Shown piece by piece: positions 20,875-28,484 of a DNA stretch of 33,810 nt. The notes beneath the pieces are model-generated. The model saw only the letters and a program-made list of their open reading frames with translations, did not search any database and was not told the origin of the DNA. The DNA comes from Verrucomicrobiota bacterium (GTDB taxonomy: Bacteria; Verrucomicrobiota; Verrucomicrobiia; Limisphaerales; UBA1096). The DNA is taken from NCBI GenBank assembly GCA_003972865.1, contig QOAX01000277.1:1-33810 (forward strand), read 5' to 3'. Within the stretch, counting starts at the first letter, position 1, and every line of letters starts with the position of its first letter. Made by a program: the position numbers and the translations under genes.

Positions 20875-21282
20875 CGATGAAAATTATTTGGTTCTCGGAC
20901 AGGAACAGTAGAGTTGACGGTGCTACAATTTAGTAGACGAGTAATGGGTTAAAAGATCATGTAAGCGTGCCAAAAAAGACAGGATGCCTTTCCCGGCGTT
21001 AGGGTTTGATACACCGTCTCTCGTGAAATTATTAACACTGCGTTCTTTGAGATTCAAGCATCCGGCAAAGCGGATGCCCTGAAAAACACCCGGGCGCTCG
21101 GGGGGGCTTTACACTTGACCGGGAAAGGTGAAGGCCGTTGGCTCTGTCCGTGCCCACACTCCAGCCTGATATTCCAAAAAGCCTGGTGCAAAACAAGAAG
21201 TATAGTCAATTGTCGGGACTGGTCACCTTTTCGAACCAGTTTTTTGGGAACACCTCAAGAACTTTTCTTTTTGCCTGAACGC

Positions 21283-22092
21283 GTGAAGTTCGATCAACCC
21301 AGTTCCACTGCAAGGCTCATTGCCCGAAGCCTTCTATTTCTTGCCCAGGAAAAACGCTTTTTGGAACTAATGCCTCCGGGCATGCTTGAGGGAACCTCTT
21401 GCTTTGCCGCAGACAACCCCGAGGCCCGGGAACGTCTGGCCAGACGCCTGAGGACCCCTGTTGTTCGGCTCTTCGTTAAAGCCGTCGAGGCCCTTGTCCT
21501 GCCCGGCATTCAGATTCACTACCTCCTGCGCAAACTTGCGCTAGAGGCCCTCATTCGGGACAGCCTTGCCAACGCTACGAGGCAGGTGGTGGTTCTCGGC
21601 GCTGGTCTGGACACCTTGGCGGGAAGGCTGCACCACGAATTCCCCGACGCCCGATTCTTGGAAGTCGACCACCCAGCCACGCAGCGTGCCAAAATCGAAC
21701 TCATGCATGACTGGCTCGCGCCCGGCCCGAATCTGTATTTTCTATACGGGGACCTTGCCGAGCAAACCCTTGACAAACTGCTCCTGGAATCTCCTCACTT
21801 CGAACCGGGATCACCAACGCTTTTTCTCGCCGAGGGACTGCTCATGTACCTGCCTGTGGAGCAAATCGACATCATCTTCGCTTTCGTGAGCAGTCATCAT
21901 CCTGCAAACCGTATTGCCTTTACCTACATGGAAAATCAGCCGCCCGCAGGTAAGCCCGGGTTCGAGGGGTTCCGCTGGTTCACCAATGCCTGGCTACGAT
22001 GGAAGAACGAGCCGTTCACCTGGGGATTGTCGAGGAACGAGGTTGAATCCTTTGTCCGACAGCGGGAGATCTGCAACTGCTGGAGCACTTGA
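21283..22092 (+). CDS. Class I SAM-dependent methyltransferase, LCMT / TcmP-like (COG3315, TIGR00027-like). The 3' end is possibly frameshifted (see findings).
   Basis: VVVLGAGLDTLAGRL (SAM motif I), FLEVDHPATQRAK and TLFLAEGLLMYL are typical of the leucine carboxyl methyltransferase superfamily. I prefer the in-frame GTG at 21283 (VKFDQPSSTARLIARS) to the listed TTG at 21115. GC is intermediate, about 48-63% in sampled lines. Confidence 0.7.
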   Translation: MKFDQPSSTARLIARSLLFLAQEKRFLELMPPGMLEGTSCFAADNPEARERLARRLRTPVVRLFVKAVEALVLPGIQIHYLLRKLALEALIRDSLANATRQVVVLGAGLDTLAGRLHHEFPDARFLEVDHPATQRAKIELMHDWLAPGPNLYFLYGDLAEQTLDKLLLESPHFEPGSPTLFLAEGLLMYLPVEQIDIIFAFVSSHHPANRIAFTYMENQPPAGKPGFEGFRWFTNAWLRWKNEPFTWGLSRNEVESFVRQREICNCWST

Positions 22093-22438
22093 ACGCAACG
22101 TATCTCCGAGAAAGGTTCTTGTCTGAAAATGAGACCCTCCGGAATCTGAAGCCCATCTCGGGGGAATCCATCGCTTTCTGCCAGACGGCCTGAATCCTAA
22201 TCGTTACCAAGCTCAAACGCCCATGGCGCCGCCTTTGTGTCTGATTGGCGTTGATGGTGATTGCGATTTCAACATTACAACCGTTTTGAAAGCCAATTCT
22301 TTCCGGGAATGGCATGCCTCCTGAGTGCCTGTTCCAGTGTGCCACCGGGATGCTGTTTCCCTTAACAGTCTTGCCCTACATTAGCTTGTCGAAAAGAGGG
22401 TTGAGAGTTCATTTTGAAAAGCATAAGTGTTTTCGGAT

Positions 22439-23566
22439 CTATCCAGGTGAAGAATATGTAGAAAGGGTTCGTTCAGACTCAATGTTAAGGCCGAATCCAC
22501 CTTTGCTTTCTGATCGGAAGGGGGCAATGATTTTTCCTTTTTCTCCAAATGATATTGGCTCGTCGGTAATATCATATTTCAGTAAATGCGTTCCGAATGC
22601 TCCTTCTTGAGCTAGTAAGATTTCCCGACAGTTATTAGCAACAGCAAGGGCAGCCCTCGTGAGGATACTGGTTTCGCCGACTTGTGCCCCAACAACGATT
22701 GGAATTTTTAGTTCTTTGGCCTTGTCGATGATGGCAAGGGAACGAAGAATACCCCCCATCTTTGAAATTCTAAGGTTTATTATCCAATATTCTGGATCAT
22801 CCTCAATATGTTGAAAATGCTCAATACAAAGGAAACTTTCATCAAGTATTATTGGCGTTTTTAATGTTTTTGACAGATGCCGGCAACCACGAAAATTCCC
22901 TGCCTTAAGTGGTTCCTCCACGGCTAGAAATTCATGGTCAAGTTCCTGAATGTAGGTTTCCGCATCTGTGGTATCGGCCCAAAAATTGTTGGCATCGAGT
23001 CTTATTGTTGAGTCGGGGACATTATTTACCAGGCAGTTTACTTTAGCTTGATCCAACTTTAGGTCGCCTGATATTTTCATCTTGAAATCAGTGAAACCGA
23101 TACGAAGATAACGGTTTAGTTGACTATTAAAGCTAGACAGGTTCTGAGCATCCAACACGGCTGTATATTGAAACTCACCACTTAGTTGTTTTAGTGAAAG
23201 AAGTGATTCGACTGATTCTGAATTCGATTTTGCAAGCAAGTCTATAACGGCTAACTCAACCGAGCAGAACGCTGCCGGGTTTTTATCAATTAATGACTGG
23301 TTTTCACGAACCCATTGTCTGAGGTCCTCCGCACATGAGACTTCTAGGATGGAATCGTGTTGAGTATTGATAAATTCAAGTGCCGTATCCACGGTTTCAT
23401 CGGTGACATATCTGCGTGGACAACCCTCTCCATGACCCATTTCACTACCCACCGATTCAATTTCAACGAATATGCTTTGTGATTCAAGTCGTGTAGCTGA
23501 GGCATGACTAAATACCGCGTTGAAAGGTATTCGCAGTGGCCTTGCGGTAATCTCGTTAATTTTCAT
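22439..23566 (-). CDS. Enolase-superfamily enzyme of the muconate-lactonizing (MLE) subgroup: dipeptide epimerase, N-acylamino-acid racemase or OSBS-like
   Basis: The full catalytic set is visible: KxK (FKMKIS, K162/K164), metal ligands D191 (IRLDANNFW), E218 (AVEEP) and D242 (ILDES), and the second base K269 (RISKMGG). The ATG overlaps the GH3 stop (ATGA). Confidence 0.85.
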   Translation of the reverse strand: MKINEITARPLRIPFNAVFSHASATRLESQSIFVEIESVGSEMGHGEGCPRRYVTDETVDTALEFINTQHDSILEVSCAEDLRQWVRENQSLIDKNPAAFCSVELAVIDLLAKSNSESVESLLSLKQLSGEFQYTAVLDAQNLSSFNSQLNRYLRIGFTDFKMKISGDLKLDQAKVNCLVNNVPDSTIRLDANNFWADTTDAETYIQELDHEFLAVEEPLKAGNFRGCRHLSKTLKTPIILDESFLCIEHFQHIEDDPEYWIINLRISKMGGILRSLAIIDKAKELKIPIVVGAQVGETSILTRAALAVANNCREILLAQEGAFGTHLLKYDITDEPISFGEKGKIIAPFRSESKGGFGLNIESERTLSTYSSPG

Positions 23567-25236
23567 CGTTGGACAATATACCGATTAAAATCAAAGTTAC
23601 ATTCATTGTCATATTGCAGCCTAACCATTTTGAATTGGCCTTCACGCTGCCCTTTTTGGATGCAGTGACTCTTGTATTCCTCTGCTGCTTTATCCCTCAA
23701 GCACTGCACTCTGACAGGCCTTAGTCTCCCGCTTTTTCGTTTGTTTTCATATTCAATATTCAATTTGCAAAGACGTTGATCCAGTTCAATTTCTAACCGG
23801 GTTTCAATATTCTCATGTTGTACATAAAGGGTGTATTGCGATGATTCTCTATGTGCTATCATAATGAAGAACTCAAAGGTAGTGTTCATGTCCTCCATCA
23901 TATTCATTACTGCATTGGTGACCTGAGTTTCATAAAGCTTTTCCCCGGTCAAGTTTGTGACACCACGACCTTTTTGCACAAATCTTATAGTGGGTGTGTT
24001 GTTATACCATCCTGTCACCTCTACGATGTCATTAATGAAATAACGATATAAACCATTTTGAGTGGTCACAATGATATAGTATTGAGCATCTTTTTCGACT
24101 TCAGTTAACCTCTTGAATTTAAAAATGTTATTTTCCCAGTCATCTCGCTGGACAAATTCGAAAAAGTTTTCATGAATTGTAGGAATCTGGATATTGTTTG
24201 CTATATCGATCGTGATGCTTCCTCGAAACTCACTTGCCATGTATCCCATCTCGCTAATGACAGCGTTCGTGGCTAATTGCTTTCTTAGGGAAGGTAATAA
24301 AACACTACAATTACCTGCAGTCCATGTTGATACGAGCCTAAGATTTGGCCAAACATCTGTGAATCCGATAAACCCTTTTTCCCTTACCAGGAATTTAAGT
24401 TTGTTTGCCCTTTCAGGCTGTCTTTTAAACCTTCTTTTTATTGCGCTCAGTTTAACGCAATCCAAGGTGCTCTTGACGGACAGTTCACCGGTTTCGATAT
24501 CGCGGATTAACTGAACGGAATTTTCATTAATTGTATTCAGTATCTTTAAAATAGTAGAAGGGTTAGCCGTTGCCAACATAGTGATTTCGCTCTCTGCCAA
24601 GGCAAAAGCTGCAATCATATAATATTTATCATCATAATTGTCTATTTCAAATATCTCTGAAGGTAAAACATATCTTTGATGTAAAATGCTTGGCATGCTT
24701 TTGTAAATAAATCCCGACATAGATCCAAATGGTGTCCCTGTTTCCAAGAACCCTTCGATATCAGGGCTCACAATGGCTAAAATCTTTCCAAAGAAAATAT
24801 CCGGGAAGGTGCTATATTGCGCATAAGCAAAAATATTCTGGCTGTATTTATAATTTTTAACTGTGCTCTTCAATATGGGAACATATTTGGGTTCACCGGT
24901 GGTACCGCTCGTTTGGGCATACATGATAGGCTGTTCGGCATTCAGCATAGGCTTCTTCTTGATTTCTTGGTTCTCAATTAACATCCGTAGGTCTTCATAG
25001 GTGTGCACATTCACAGTTGCACTAAAGTCCCTGTAAGAATTTATCCTTTCTAGTCCCAATTGCTTTCCATAGACGGTACCCTTGTTTGCCTTTAATATAC
25101 TTCTCAGTAGTAAATCTTGATATTTGCTTGGCTGTTTGGTCTTACTTATTAAGGGGTCAAAACAGAAATACTTGATCCATACCATTCTCAGGCGGATGAA
25201 TAGGTCTAGAAATATTTTGATAGCTTTACTAACCAC
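23563..25236 (-). CDS. GH3-family acyl-acid amido synthetase (adenylating; 'GH3 auxin-responsive promoter' family, PF03321-like)
   Basis: All three GH3/ANL nucleotide motifs are present: QTSGTTGEPKYVP, GYMASEF and YRYFINDIVEV, followed by TPTIRFVQKGRGVTNLTGEKLYETQV. 557 aa. The GTG start lies 2 nt after the hydroxylase stop, and an in-frame ATG 17 codons downstream is an alternative. Confidence 0.85.
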   Translation of the reverse strand: MVSKAIKIFLDLFIRLRMVWIKYFCFDPLISKTKQPSKYQDLLLRSILKANKGTVYGKQLGLERINSYRDFSATVNVHTYEDLRMLIENQEIKKKPMLNAEQPIMYAQTSGTTGEPKYVPILKSTVKNYKYSQNIFAYAQYSTFPDIFFGKILAIVSPDIEGFLETGTPFGSMSGFIYKSMPSILHQRYVLPSEIFEIDNYDDKYYMIAAFALAESEITMLATANPSTILKILNTINENSVQLIRDIETGELSVKSTLDCVKLSAIKRRFKRQPERANKLKFLVREKGFIGFTDVWPNLRLVSTWTAGNCSVLLPSLRKQLATNAVISEMGYMASEFRGSITIDIANNIQIPTIHENFFEFVQRDDWENNIFKFKRLTEVEKDAQYYIIVTTQNGLYRYFINDIVEVTGWYNNTPTIRFVQKGRGVTNLTGEKLYETQVTNAVMNMMEDMNTTFEFFIMIAHRESSQYTLYVQHENIETRLEIELDQRLCKLNIEYENKRKSGRLRPVRVQCLRDKAAEEYKSHCIQKGQREGQFKMVRLQYDNECNFDFNRYIVQR

Positions 25237-25238
25237 AA

Positions 25239-26120
25239 TTATCCTTGGTCCATTCCTTTTTTAAACGGAGTCTTTAGTTGACTCAAAAAATCCAAGGGAT
25301 ATTTTCTATTTTTCAAGCCCAATTCCCGGACCATCTTGGTCTTAGGGAGATACCAAGTACCAAATACCAAGTCCCATATGATTAAGTTATTTCCGTAGTT
25401 TTTATTGGACTCACCGAGGACAACCGAGTGGTGCCAACGATGCAGTTCTGGGCCGCTTACAATGTAATTTAACGGTCCCAATTTGAGTTCAATATTACAG
25501 TGCTGAAAAAATCCGTTTATGGCAAAAAAAACAAAATAAAGAGCCAGCACCTTGCCTGAAACTCCGAGAACAATGAAAGGTAATGAGTCAAATAAAAATT
25601 GCAGGCCTTTTTCAATGGGATGAAATCTTCCCACATTGATCCAGTACAGTTTATGAGGCGAATGATGCACGGCATGCAGACGCCATAAAAGCATCCATTT
25701 ATGGCTCAATCTATGCAACCAATAACGCAAAAAATCCGCACTTAAAACCATAAGAACTGCCTGCGTGTAAACTGGCCATGTATCGGGCCATAATCGATCA
25801 AATGTGTATCCACTTGAACGGAGCATTTTAAGTAGAGTAATGGAAAAGAAAAACGAAAGAATTTTGACTAAAAGGACTTGAACCAAAAACATATAAGACA
25901 AGTCGTTTAACACATCTCCTCTTTTCGCTAACCATTCTTGTCGATGTGGAAATTTTAATTCCATTAAAGTGATAACAGTCAGCCCTACCGCTACTGGGAT
26001 ATATGTTGCAATTTGGAGCGAAAAATCAAGATCGAGGATTAGATAATGTAATAATAGGCATGTTCCCATCAATACCGGGTAAGTAACTATTGGAACTATT
26101 ATCTTGAAAAATTCTTTCAT
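25239..26120 (-). CDS. Fatty acid hydroxylase / sterol desaturase-family integral membrane di-iron oxygenase
   Basis: Histidine boxes HRLSH, HAVHH and HRWHH with the expected spacing. Several hydrophobic helices in the N-terminal half. ATG at 26120. Confidence 0.85.
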   Translation of the reverse strand: MKEFFKIIVPIVTYPVLMGTCLLLHYLILDLDFSLQIATYIPVAVGLTVITLMELKFPHRQEWLAKRGDVLNDLSYMFLVQVLLVKILSFFFSITLLKMLRSSGYTFDRLWPDTWPVYTQAVLMVLSADFLRYWLHRLSHKWMLLWRLHAVHHSPHKLYWINVGRFHPIEKGLQFLFDSLPFIVLGVSGKVLALYFVFFAINGFFQHCNIELKLGPLNYIVSGPELHRWHHSVVLGESNKNYGNNLIIWDLVFGTWYLPKTKMVRELGLKNRKYPLDFLSQLKTPFKKGMDQG

Positions 26121-26407
26121 TTTTCACTTTTCGTTGACGGTTTCCCGCTGTTGAGGAAGCAAGTTATCACATATCATCTGAAAACCGTCCATTGATAAAA
26201 TCAATGATAACATCGACTGAATCAATACTCACCCCGCACGACTCCAAGGGGTTACTGCGCCTGCCCCCATTCTTCGACCACAGCTCGTGATGGGGTCAGT
26301 TCTTGTTATTGACAAGTAACGGGTATTCAAACAGGGGTCACCCTGCGGACTAACATTTTAGAGCGCATTATTTTGACAACCCGTCCCGCCGGCCCGGACA
26401 TCACGTA

Positions 26408-27646
26408 TCATTTGCCCGGACGTACCGGTTGCAGCCAGGCGCGTTCGTGTTCCCCGGCGACGTACGGGTTGGCTTTCTTTTTCGAGGCCATGATCTCGGC
26501 GCGGACGTACAGCTCGTCGCCGTTGAAGGTGTAGCTTGGCTCGAGCGACTGCGATTGGCCGAGGATCTCGCCGATGCCGGCCTCGCTTGGCTTGAGTGAG
26601 TTGCGCTTGGGCAAGTCACTGCTGCTCTTGAAATTCTTCCGCGTGCCGATGAACCATGTGGTGTATGTCACGCCCGCCTCCGGCTGGATGCGGAAACTGT
26701 ACTTGCGCCTGGCCAAGCGGACGTCGTGCACGGCCACGCCGCTCGAGGCGTAAAAGTCGCCGCGCTCCATCGCCGCTATGATCGACTCCGGCGTGAGCGA
26801 CTTGGCGCGAACCATCACCCACCCGCGGCCGGTGTTGCTCTGGCCAACGGCGAGGTCGTGGTAGTTGTGCGCGTCGTCGGTGCCCAGGGCGAACATCAAC
26901 GGCAGCTTGTGTACGCCGAGCCGGTAGGCGTTGATCACGTCCCAAAGCTGCCCCGTGCTGAGGTGCTTGGAGTCGCCGTAGTTCCGTACCGCTGGGTGGC
27001 CGTTGTACACCTCGAAAAACCGTTCGCCGCGCAGCCGGATCATGTCGGCCGGCTGGATCGCCCAGCCGAAGTTGGGGTGGTTGATGTGCGGGAACATCGG
27101 CTGGCCGGTCGCCTTGCGCTGCGCCAGCACGGCGTCGATGTTTTTCTGCATCGTCGCCGCCACCCCGGCCCCGCCCTGCGGCGGGATTTGTTTCCCGATG
27201 TTGGTGACGTTGATGTGGATCGGCAGGCCCTGAAACTGGTCGGAGATTTCCTCGCTCTGCATCAGCAGGAAACTCCCCGGCACGGCCATCTTCGGGCGAT
27301 ACTCGGCGTAGGTCTTGAGCCGGACCTGCGGGACGCCTTTCACGACCCTGTGCTCGACCCAGTCGTTTCCGAAGCGCTTGAGGTATTTGTCGAATGCCCG
27401 CAGACCGCCGGCGTTTTTCTCCTGGTGAATCCAGCGCTGCCCCTCGGCCAGCACATTGTGGTCGGAGACGGCGAGAAAGTGGTAGCCATTGTCGCGGTAC
27501 CAGTCGGCGATCATCTCGGGATAGTCGTCGCCGTCGCTCCAGAGCGAGTGGGTGTGGAGGTTGCCCTTCCACCATCGGGCGTCCGCGGCGGAGAGGGTTG
27601 AGGCAGCCAGCGCGAATGCGATCGTGAGGGGGAACTTGGTTTTCAT
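26408..27646 (-). CDS. Secreted PHP-domain metallo-phosphoesterase (CehA/McbA-like)
   Basis: Signal peptide MKTKFPLTIAFALAASTLSA, then WWKGNLHTHSLWSDGDDYPE and FLAVSDHN (PHP His/Asp motifs). The ATG at 27646 is preferred to the listed TTG at 27676. Confidence 0.75.
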   Translation of the reverse strand: MKTKFPLTIAFALAASTLSAADARWWKGNLHTHSLWSDGDDYPEMIADWYRDNGYHFLAVSDHNVLAEGQRWIHQEKNAGGLRAFDKYLKRFGNDWVEHRVVKGVPQVRLKTYAEYRPKMAVPGSFLLMQSEEISDQFQGLPIHINVTNIGKQIPPQGGAGVAATMQKNIDAVLAQRKATGQPMFPHINHPNFGWAIQPADMIRLRGERFFEVYNGHPAVRNYGDSKHLSTGQLWDVINAYRLGVHKLPLMFALGTDDAHNYHDLAVGQSNTGRGWVMVRAKSLTPESIIAAMERGDFYASSGVAVHDVRLARRKYSFRIQPEAGVTYTTWFIGTRKNFKSSSDLPKRNSLKPSEAGIGEILGQSQSLEPSYTFNGDELYVRAEIMASKKKANPYVAGEHERAWLQPVRPGK

Positions 27647-27773
27647 GCGTTGAAGTGGGCGAGCGTAGAGTTTCAAGTTTTCAGCTGCAAGTTTTCAATC
27701 ATCGCTTGATCCAATCGCGGCCGCGCCTGTTGCTTCTCCAAACAAGATTGCCTGGCCAAGCGCCTGGCCAGTT

Positions 27774-28484
27774 TTAATGCTGGGAGTGGAACACGCTGGC
27801 GAGAATTGACTCCTTGGTTTTCCAGAGGAGAGACATGGTCATCGACAGCGGGATCAGTACGCAGACCAGCACGAACGCCATGAAGAGCCACGGCTGCAGC
27901 CTGGCCGCCATGGCCACGAGCTGGAGGAGCAGTTCCGGCGGCTCTTCAATGAGCGACACCAGGTACATGACGCCGAAGCCGATCGACGCCATCGCCAGCA
28001 GCACGCAGTTCATCCGGGAAAACAGCTTCGCCTCAACCCGAAGCGTCTCATCCGGCAGCATGGCGGCGAGGCGCGACAACATCTTGTTGAGCGACATCAG
28101 GTAAAATACGAACACCAATGTCAACAGCCCAACAGCGTTGGCAAAGCCCAATTCGTCCGGCGCGCGGTGGTGCCAGTGCAAAAATGGAGACAAGCCAAGG
28201 TTGATCAGTCCGAGGAGTTTTACCTCGCCAAGCGCCTCCTGCCAAACGCGTTCCTGCAGCTGAAAACTGCGCAGCAGCCACAGTCCGTACCACAGCATGC
28301 TGAACGCCACCGGCGGCAGAAGCATGCCCAGCGGCCAGACAGCATCGGTCCAGTTTGAAGTGGTGGCCATGATGCTGACAACCATCGCAAACGGCAGTCC
28401 CCAAAAAAGCATCGACGTTCCGTGCACCACCCGGGCCAGCGATGGAAGCGGGTCTGGTTGTGTGTTGGTTTCGTTTATCGTCAC
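27774..28484 (-). CDS. Hypothetical polytopic membrane protein
   Basis: About 6 hydrophobic segments, for example MLFWGLPFAMVVSIMA and WLFMAFVLVCVLIPLSM. The listed start is GTG and the true start is uncertain. No family recognised. Confidence 0.55.
   Translation of the reverse strand: MTINETNTQPDPLPSLARVVHGTSMLFWGLPFAMVVSIMATTSNWTDAVWPLGMLLPPVAFSMLWYGLWLLRSFQLQERVWQEALGEVKLLGLINLGLSPFLHWHHRAPDELGFANAVGLLTLVFVFYLMSLNKMLSRLAAMLPDETLRVEAKLFSRMNCVLLAMASIGFGVMYLVSLIEEPPELLLQLVAMAARLQPWLFMAFVLVCVLIPLSMTMSLLWKTKESILASVFHSQH

Follow-up and report, generated by a model that had tools for sequence, protein, structure and literature searches.

In plants, GH3 enzymes such as JAR1, GH3.12/PBS3 and the indole-3-acetic acid (IAA)-amido synthetases adenylate an acid and then form an amide. 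It was not until 2025 that GH3-dependent aminolipid synthesis was demonstrated in bacteria, and then for a single planctomycete enzyme, OlsH of Singulisphaera acidiphila, which produces N-acyl-ornithine from a free fatty acid with ATP and Mg2+ (PMC12493201). OlsH is encoded with the N-methyltransferase OlsG and the alpha/beta-hydrolase O-acyltransferase OlsI, the pathway of the three proteins beginning with the ATP-dependent N-acylation of an amino acid by a free fatty acid, and its authors point to more than 7,500 bacterial homologues that possibly use other amino acids (PMC12493201). Another aminolipid enzyme, OlsE of Rhizobium tropici and Agrobacterium, hydroxylates C4 of the ornithine head group (PMC12971839); its substrates are complete ornithine lipids, the products of OlsBA. 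In the enolase superfamily, a KxK/D/E/D/K set of catalytic residues is common to racemases, OSBS (a dehydratase) and MLE (a cycloisomerase) (PMC8142540). Here we describe a cassette that unites these three kinds of enzymes in a 33,810-nucleotide stretch from a Verrucomicrobiota bacterium (contig QOAX01000277.1; hereafter the window), consisting of the genes of an OlsE-like membrane hydroxylase, a GH3-family ligase and an MLE-subgroup member of the enolase superfamily. The three genes form one functional unit that is inherited together across many phyla, and we consider it moderately likely that the product of the cassette is a hydroxylated, possibly D-configured N-acyl amino acid lipid made at the cytoplasmic face of the inner membrane.

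The locus resembles the OlsH-OlsG-OlsI system in that a bacterial GH3 protein, with the nucleotide-binding motifs of its family retained, is encoded in a compact operon with lipid-modifying enzymes. It differs in that the GH3 protein of the window belongs to a separate clade (81.5 bits against the OlsH model, for which the cut-off is 620 bits) and in that its partners are not OlsI and OlsG; the logic of the cassette departs from that of OlsHI, in that the constant companions of the GH3 gene are an OlsE-like hydroxylase and an enolase-superfamily enzyme of an uncharacterised family. No alpha/beta-hydrolase gene adjoins the cassette in the window. The genes of the cassette, in the order of transcription, are as follows.

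25239..26120, minus strand: OlsE-like membrane di-iron hydroxylase of the FA_hydroxylase family, cassette gene 1 (293 aa; PF04116, 105 bits)
23563..25236, minus strand: GH3-family acyl-acid amido synthetase (557 aa from GTG; alternative ATG at 25185)
22439..23566, minus strand: enolase-superfamily enzyme, MLE subgroup (375 aa; MR_MLE_C, 93 bits)

The open reading frames (ORFs) of the window and the letters at their junctions bear out the packing described in the first-pass annotation of this DNA, in which the three genes lie end to end on the minus strand. The hydroxylase stop codon TAA is 2 nt from the GTG of the GH3 gene (GGA TAA tt GTG), and the GH3 stop codon overlaps the start of the enolase gene as ATGA (CAACG ATGA AA). 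The first of these junctions depends on the start of the GH3 gene, which may in reality be the ATG at 25185, because the corresponding M18 is near-invariant in homologues, many of which are shorter by about 17 residues; the gap would then be 53 nt instead of 2 nt. The three family assignments are also upheld, as PF04116, the GH3 domains and MR_MLE_C all scored far above their gathering scores.

Conservation of the cassette and its accessory genes

The conservation of the cassette was determined in two scans, one covering one genome per species with GH3 peptide patterns, which gave 20 loci, and the other covering metagenomes by GH3 alignment, in which the best 80 of 465 confirmed matches were kept (41-100% identity). 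The patterns were derived from the GH3 clade of the window, which comprises about 1,900 clusters (90% identity) at E<=1e-10, and the counts describe this clade rather than all bacterial GH3 genes. The order hydroxylase-GH3-enolase on one strand was found in 19 of the 20 genome loci, which represent Nitrosomonas, Burkholderiales, Gammaproteobacteria, Woeseiaceae, Kiloniella, Bryobacterales, Vicinamibacterales, other Acidobacteria and Bacteroidetes/Flavobacteriales, the exception being a Bacteriovoracaceae locus that lacks only the hydroxylase gene; the Nitrosomonas and Kiloniella loci come from metagenome-assembled or enrichment genomes. The metagenome loci were complete and collinear in 69 of 80 cases, with nine cut by contig ends and two lacking the enolase gene. 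When sampling was started from the enolase side, independently of the GH3 patterns, the trio was recovered in Candidatus Nitronauta litoralis, in Nitrospira and in a divergent locus (L111:2836-8960) with only 35-38% identity to the window. Enolase homologues at two other loci (L112 and L025, with about 36% and 39% identity) lie outside a cassette, the one at L025 being a fusion with an alpha/beta-hydrolase, so that the linkage fades around 36-39% enolase identity with no sharp threshold.

The flanks beyond the cassette are unrelated between lineages, and the identities of the three genes to those of the window covary (r = 0.49-0.75, 75 loci). The strongest evidence of functional coupling comes from gene fusions: a single protein of 1207 aa (P0269) carries FA_hydroxylase, GH3 and MR_MLE_C domains in the order of the operon, and a hydroxylase-GH3 fusion of 722 aa is encoded at L111. 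The first-pass annotation had held that the idea of a shared pathway would fail if the three genes were not co-conserved in any other genome; their order is in fact kept in about 90 independent loci, and the fusions come in addition. Both the unit and the broad chemical scheme proposed there stand.

Many loci include a fourth gene, for a protein of about 150 aa that contains four hydrophobic segments and matches no Pfam family (small membrane protein, SMP); this gene was found in about two thirds of the loci that have room upstream (53 of 80). It lies directly upstream of the hydroxylase gene in 44 loci and just downstream of the enolase gene in 12 (examples are L021:5025-5459 and L023:4988-5470), and it is fused in frame to the hydroxylase gene in about six. 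Its conserved residues, in the numbering of the L021 protein, are R21, Q25, P37, W42, S44, Y49, Q56, Y92, R99, W112, P118 and H122, and the protein might be a subunit of the hydroxylase or its electron-transfer partner. Neither an SMP gene nor a remnant of one is present at 26121-26407 of the window. The first-pass annotation had missed this gene of most relatives, as well as the low-GC island in which the cassette of the window lies.

Clustering of the neighbours of about 100 loci gave, besides SMP, one other recurrent family, an alpha/beta-hydrolase of the CocE/NonD type (Peptidase_S15/PepX_C), and no further one. Eleven of the approximately 100 loci, from diverse lineages, have this hydrolase gene on the strand of the cassette and separated from it by 0-200 bp (L032:5621-7468, L063:10707-12467, L015:23-1732, L007:12081-13574 and seven others; minimum pairwise identity of 38%). 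In addition, two enolase homologues (P0340 and P0349) carry a C-terminal alpha/beta-hydrolase fusion. The S15 hydrolases and the fused alpha/beta-hydrolases could be OlsI-like O-acyltransferases or deacylases. The hydrolase parts of P0340 and P0349 were rejected as OlsI orthologues, as they matched only generic hydrolase models and P0340 (L025) is outside a GH3 context. At L111, the cassette is joined, with overlapping ORFs, by the genes of a translationally coupled MMPL-family transporter and of an ICMT/PEMT membrane methyltransferase, which suggests that this lineage exports and methylates a lipid product.

Predicted chemistry of the three enzymes

The findings made at the level of genes, that is, layout, conservation, fusions and island, are secure, and the chemistry inferred here would proceed in three steps. 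In the first step, as suggested by the chemistry of the family and by OlsH, the soluble GH3 enzyme would activate a carboxylic acid by adenylation and link it through an amide to the alpha-amino nitrogen of an amino acid; the acid is most likely a free fatty acid, and the N-acyl-L-amino acid formed would be a lyso-aminolipid. In the second, the membrane di-iron enzyme would hydroxylate, or possibly desaturate, this lipid, probably in its head group, judging from the full-length similarity to OlsE. In the third, the enolase-superfamily enzyme would hold the free alpha-carboxylate through Mg2+ while one of its lysines takes the alpha-proton, which would most likely be returned from the opposite face to give the D-epimer, as its catalytic residues and nearest relatives imply.

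The hydroxylase has OlsE as its only NCBIfam match (NF052566; 211.9 bits, E=1e-62), and the match extends over residues 7-288 of the protein and 4-285 of the 293 positions of the model, confirming the link to OlsE drawn in the first-pass annotation. It shares with OlsE the length of 293 aa, collinearity over 282 of 293 positions and the di-iron His-box membrane fold of the family. Ten histidines, namely those of the boxes H136xxxH140, H149xxHH153 and H227xxHH231 together with H167 and H207, are invariant in 86 homologues, and the protein has at least four hydrophobic segments. The difference from OlsE is seen in the score, which at 212 bits contrasts with a cut-off of 475, and in the gene context: a linkage of OlsE to GH3 or enolase genes is described neither in the main text of the OlsH paper, where OlsE is unmentioned, nor in a 2026 review, which names no enolase, racemase or epimerase.

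The GH3 protein matched the N, M and C domains of its family (PF03321, PF23571 and PF23572) with 188.2, 71.3 and 50.6 bits, the Pfam cut-off being 23.6 for each. The nucleotide-binding motifs T109-S110-G111-T-T-G-x-P116-K117, Y332-x-x-S335-E336 and R398-Y399-x-x-x-D403 and the C-terminal Q534 and K536 are invariant in 32 homologues, and the motifs align to plant GH3 structures. The protein has the three-domain architecture of the plant enzymes, whose structures match it over residues 33-539 (E ~1e-24), and the same adenylation and amide formation are expected of it; it differs from them in its sequence, with a score of only about 90 bits, in its context, a bacterial operon that includes genes of membrane enzymes, and in having no link to hormone metabolism. 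The OlsH model (NF052613) matched only residues 291-550. The GH3 protein of the window thus represents, by its sequence, a third clade beside OlsH and the plant GH3s, and it is predicted to be an ATP-dependent acid-amino acid ligase. The first-pass annotation had described bacterial GH3 homologues as essentially uncharacterised, which is outdated since the characterisation of OlsH in 2025, and that same enzyme provides the bacterial precedent for the N-acyl amino acid that it had named as the GH3 product (PMC12493201).

As the GH3 protein scores about equally against the plant GH3 structures and against OlsH, and as its acyl substrate is not fixed by sequence, it might instead join a small or aromatic acid to the amino acid, in the manner of plant GH3s with jasmonate, IAA, benzoates or isochorismate, with the other enzymes tailoring a soluble signal or secondary metabolite. 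Such a non-lipid conjugate seems to us quite improbable, because an integral-membrane hydroxylase is obligatorily coupled, and sometimes fused, to the GH3 protein, because the product of the frequent fourth gene has four hydrophobic segments, because the L111 cassette is coupled to genes of an MMPL transporter and an ICMT/PEMT membrane methyltransferase, and because OlsE, the only named relative of the hydroxylase, acts on a membrane lipid. The lipid character of the product is supported by much the same evidence, namely the obligatory hydroxylase, an integral membrane protein from a lipid-modifying family, SMP, the fusions that tether the GH3 protein to the membrane, the MMPL and ICMT genes of L111, and the precedents of OlsE and OlsH.

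The enolase-superfamily enzyme is a member of a large, distinct and, as its sequence indicates, uncharacterised MLE-subgroup family that is tied to the GH3 gene. Among 357 representatives of this family (50%-identity clusters, E<=1e-30), the top 150 all scored above 200 bits. Forty-one family members without exception have K162/K164, D191, E218, D242 and K269, which align with the KxK motif, the metal ligands and the second lysine of dipeptide epimerases and racemases of solved structure. An AlphaFold2 model (predicted local distance difference test score of 91.5) has the capping domain and modified TIM barrel of the superfamily, and Foldseek gave TM-scores of 0.82-0.87 to dipeptide epimerases, N-succinyl Arg/Lys racemase and MLEs at identities of no more than 24%. 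The nearest solved relatives are the dipeptide epimerases 3jva, 1jpm and 3r0k and the N-succinyl Arg/Lys racemase 2p88; in family profile scores, 3jva reached 160 bits, 2p88 159 and 1jpm 139, while MLEs gave at most 95 and 1wuf, the OSBS/NSAR relative, gave 84. The enzyme shares the fold, the KxK motif, the D/E/D ligands and the second lysine with the racemases and epimerases of the subgroup (3jva, 1jpm/1tkk, 3r0k, 2p88, NSAR/OSBS and DgcA), and the substrate class of these enzymes, with an N-alpha-amide and a free carboxylate, is the predicted product class of the GH3 ligase.

The enzyme differs from the known racemases and epimerases of the subgroup in its low identity to them, in its coupling to a GH3 ligase and a membrane hydroxylase, in its own set of invariant residues and in its scores against curated NCBIfam models, all of which (MenC, DgcA, AEE, muconate cycloisomerase and hydroxyproline dehydratase) were far under their cut-offs, with the dipeptide-epimerase models, for example, giving 66.3 versus 500 bits and 50 versus 343 bits. 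The family-specific invariants are F19, H21, R26, E47, C49-P50-R51, Y53, E57, Q295, E298 and Q320-E321-G322; no amino acid can be read reliably from H21, R26, E47, R51 and E57, which lie in the 20s and 50s loops. In dipeptide epimerases, the N-terminal ammonium group of the dipeptide is bound by a D-x-D motif that follows strand 8. In a partial profile alignment that ends at this point, the first Asp of the '..RAD' of 3jva aligns to the invariant Q320.

The top NCBIfam score of the enzyme was obtained with menC_lowGC_arch (93.5 bits), and GH3 proteins are distantly related to ANL adenylating enzymes, two points that agree with the alternative offered in the first-pass annotation, a MenC/MenE-like pair for menaquinone synthesis. 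This alternative was rejected and has, in our estimation, next to no chance of being correct. All MenC models were far below their cut-offs (93.5 versus 200.65, 71.8 versus 130.55 and 53.2 versus 259 bits), OSBS/NSAR structures scored below epimerases, and the match to the AMP-binding Pfam model, expected of a MenE-type protein, was insignificant (15.6 versus 29.9 bits), whereas the three GH3 domains were strong. The loci with annotated gene tables contain no men genes, and among the approximately 100 clustered loci there was no recurrent men neighbour.

The second-best NCBIfam match, DgcA (N-acetyl-D-Glu racemase; 89.1 bits versus a cut-off of 400), is relevant to a different reading, in which an amino acid is acylated, racemised and deacylated again for the interconversion of its D and L forms, as in the DgcN-DgcA or N-succinyl amino acid racemase pathways. 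A precedent exists in the route of DgcN and DgcA (PMC10845958), the host is marine and D-amino acids are a resource in that environment, and a deacylase could be sought in the S15/CocE-NonD hydrolase that adjoins the cassette in 11 loci or in the enolase-alpha/beta-hydrolase fusions. However, this interconversion appears highly improbable, since it leaves the universally coupled membrane hydroxylase unexplained and an ATP-consuming ligase would be costly for catabolism. Moreover, the hydrolase is found in only about 10% of the loci and is not encoded in the window, and the one enolase-hydrolase fusion whose context was read (P0340, at L025) is outside a GH3 context.

The invariance of the two-lysine machinery in 41 members confirms the residues listed in the first-pass annotation but not their use there as a mark of a racemase, because OSBS and MLE have the same set (PMC8142540); inversion to the D-configuration is, for this reason, only plausible. 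Beta-elimination is known in MLE-subgroup members with the same residues, namely OSBS and cis-3-hydroxy-L-proline dehydratase (the model of which gave 57.7 bits here), and the dipeptide epimerase of E. coli eliminates on a substrate with a leaving group (PMC8142540). The enzyme might accordingly be a dehydratase that removes water after a beta-hydroxyl group has been introduced by the hydroxylase, which would give an N-acyl alpha,beta-dehydroamino acid (an enamide lipid). The strict 1:1:1 coupling of the genes and the fusion of hydroxylase and enolase fit such a sequence of hydroxylation and dehydration, but OlsE hydroxylates C4 of ornithine rather than C3 (PMC12971839), and the top-scoring solved relatives are epimerases and racemases, not dehydratases, so that dehydration is in our judgement unlikely. 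Epimerisation is favoured because an N-alpha-amide with a free carboxylate is the type of substrate on which the nearest enolase relatives act.

Several points weigh against a hydroxylated, possibly epimerised N-acyl amino acid lipid as the product. To our knowledge, no enolase-superfamily enzyme acts on a lipid, and the copy in the window is without the SMP that about two thirds of its relatives carry. The hydroxylase is under the OlsE equivalog cut-off (211.9 versus 475 bits). The GH3 protein is as distant from OlsH (81.5 bits, C-terminal half) as from the plant GH3s (about 90 bits), and therefore neither a fatty-acid nor an ornithine substrate can be transferred to it. The core of the cassette is also without an O-acyltransferase of the OlsI or OlsA type, and, without completion by a gene elsewhere, the product would therefore differ from a classical acyloxyacyl aminolipid. 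Furthermore, epimerisation is not established by the KxK/D/E/D/K set, which is also present in OSBS and MLE (PMC8142540).

Literature searches for the combination of GH3, enolase-superfamily and fatty-acid hydroxylase genes yielded no description, in agreement with the first-pass annotation, which knew of no bacterial system with this gene combination, and an enolase-type partner for GH3-dependent aminolipid synthesis is mentioned neither in the OlsH paper (PMC12493201) nor in the 2026 review. OlsH and OlsE are close functional precedents in aminolipid biology for two of the three enzyme types, and the conserved enolase-superfamily step is new. If the proposed pathway is correct, a membrane lipid would for the first time be known as the substrate of an enolase-superfamily enzyme, and an orphan enolase family, an orphan GH3 clade and OlsE-like hydroxylases unlinked to OlsBA would be covered by one hypothesis. 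By this hypothesis, an amino-acid lipid that has so far escaped detection should occur in groups of ecological importance, namely Nitrosomonas, Nitrospira, Nitrospinota, marine Acidobacteria, Bacteroidota and Verrucomicrobia. We suggest, tentatively and with some doubt, that the cassette makes an undescribed class of lipids, either hydroxylated N-acyl-D-amino acids or dehydro-amino-acid lipids, that is widespread in marine, sediment and nitrifying bacteria and whose synthesis moves between phyla horizontally. Interest in N-acyl amino acids extends to membrane-stress lipids, immune modulators and biosurfactants.

A horizontally acquired low-GC island

In the window, the cassette is distinguished from its surroundings by its guanine-plus-cytosine (GC) content, and two further features were delimited on this basis.

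22350..26250, no strand: low-GC horizontally acquired island, approximate extent (from GC and GC at third codon positions, GC3)
26121..26407, minus strand: cassette upstream intergenic region, spanning the island's upstream GC transition; presumed promoter region (from the GC profile)

The cassette has a GC content of 39.5% and a GC3 of 36-41%, as compared with 61-64% and 80-87% in the flanking genes and about 62% GC in the chromosome, and GC climbs from about 35% to about 55% over 26000-26400. The trio is a recently acquired low-GC island, set among chromosomal genes that, by Pfam, encode ribosomal protein S1, NadC, a PfkB kinase, DUF1552/DUF1592 'PSD' proteins and an M28 peptidase. The island and identical flanks were found in two further assemblies (L031 and L001, with 99.5% and 97.8% nucleotide identity), which makes three independent assemblies in total, and an assembly chimera behind the GC trough was ruled out by this recurrence of the junctions between island and flanks. 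The cassette genes are maintained by purifying selection in the lineage of the window, because the ratio of nonsynonymous to synonymous polymorphism (pN/pS) was 0.07-0.24 between the window and L001. The synonymous component (pS) in the compared interval, 22439-27676, was 0.02-0.06 in the island versus 0.21 in the host gene at 26408-27676, all from small counts; the low value in the island could reflect spread from strain to strain after the divergence, or a different mutation or selection regime at low-GC codons.

The borders of the island showed no direct or inverted repeats beyond chance length, no tRNA gene and no integrase. No promoter-like match above chance was found at 26121-26407, promoter and terminator scans both remaining at chance level. 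A role of the island in anti-phage defence was dropped, as PADLOC gave zero matches.

Immediately upstream of the island, at 26408-27676 on the minus strand, a protein of 422 aa with a signal-peptide-like N-terminus is encoded, followed at 27774-28484, also on the minus strand, by a multi-pass membrane protein of 236 aa; both genes have the GC content of the host and no Pfam match.

On the other side, convergent with the enolase gene, lies the gene of an S-adenosylmethionine-dependent methyltransferase of the LCM/TIGR00027 family (21115-22092, plus strand), the GC content (55%) and GC3 (62%) of which are intermediate between island and host. Its nearest homologues (64-68% identity) are from metagenome-assembled genomes (MAGs) of Opitutae/Opitutales, where they stand in an unrelated context without the cassette; as these loci are not syntenic with the window, no empty-site comparison was obtained from them. 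The homologues span only about 80% of the length of the ORF, the TTG start of which has probably been placed too far upstream. Only one locus, on a Flavobacteriales contig (L017), also has an LCM gene next to the cassette, directly upstream of it. A role of the methyltransferase as a fourth cassette gene is considered improbable, since its homologues are free of the cassette and L017 alone pairs the two. It is probably a gene of the host whose adjacency is coincidental, and a tie to carboxyl methylation of the cassette product is possible.

The L001 sequence is a 5.3-kb contig (JAKUUI010000116.1) with the island and high-GC flanks that was deposited in a SAR324 MAG. The short contig, most of which is low-GC sequence, was probably binned wrongly, because the flank genes and the methyltransferase homologues point to an Opitutales-like verrucomicrobium. 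The host of the window is likewise probably a marine verrucomicrobium of this Opitutales-like kind.

In other genomes, the GC content of the cassette mostly equals that of the host (range 35-65%), and four more loci (L035, L040, L043 and L049) are also low-GC islands. On the 3' side of the Nitrospira cassette (L023:9676-13654), DDE_Tnp_1, Transposase_mut and rve genes are found together with a truncated remnant of an S15 hydrolase gene, and these transposase and integrase genes are consistent with a mobile region. In a Kiloniella MAG (L007:9630-12069), the enolase gene is split by an ISL3-family transposase gene on the opposite strand, which makes this locus a natural knock-out of the third gene of the cassette.

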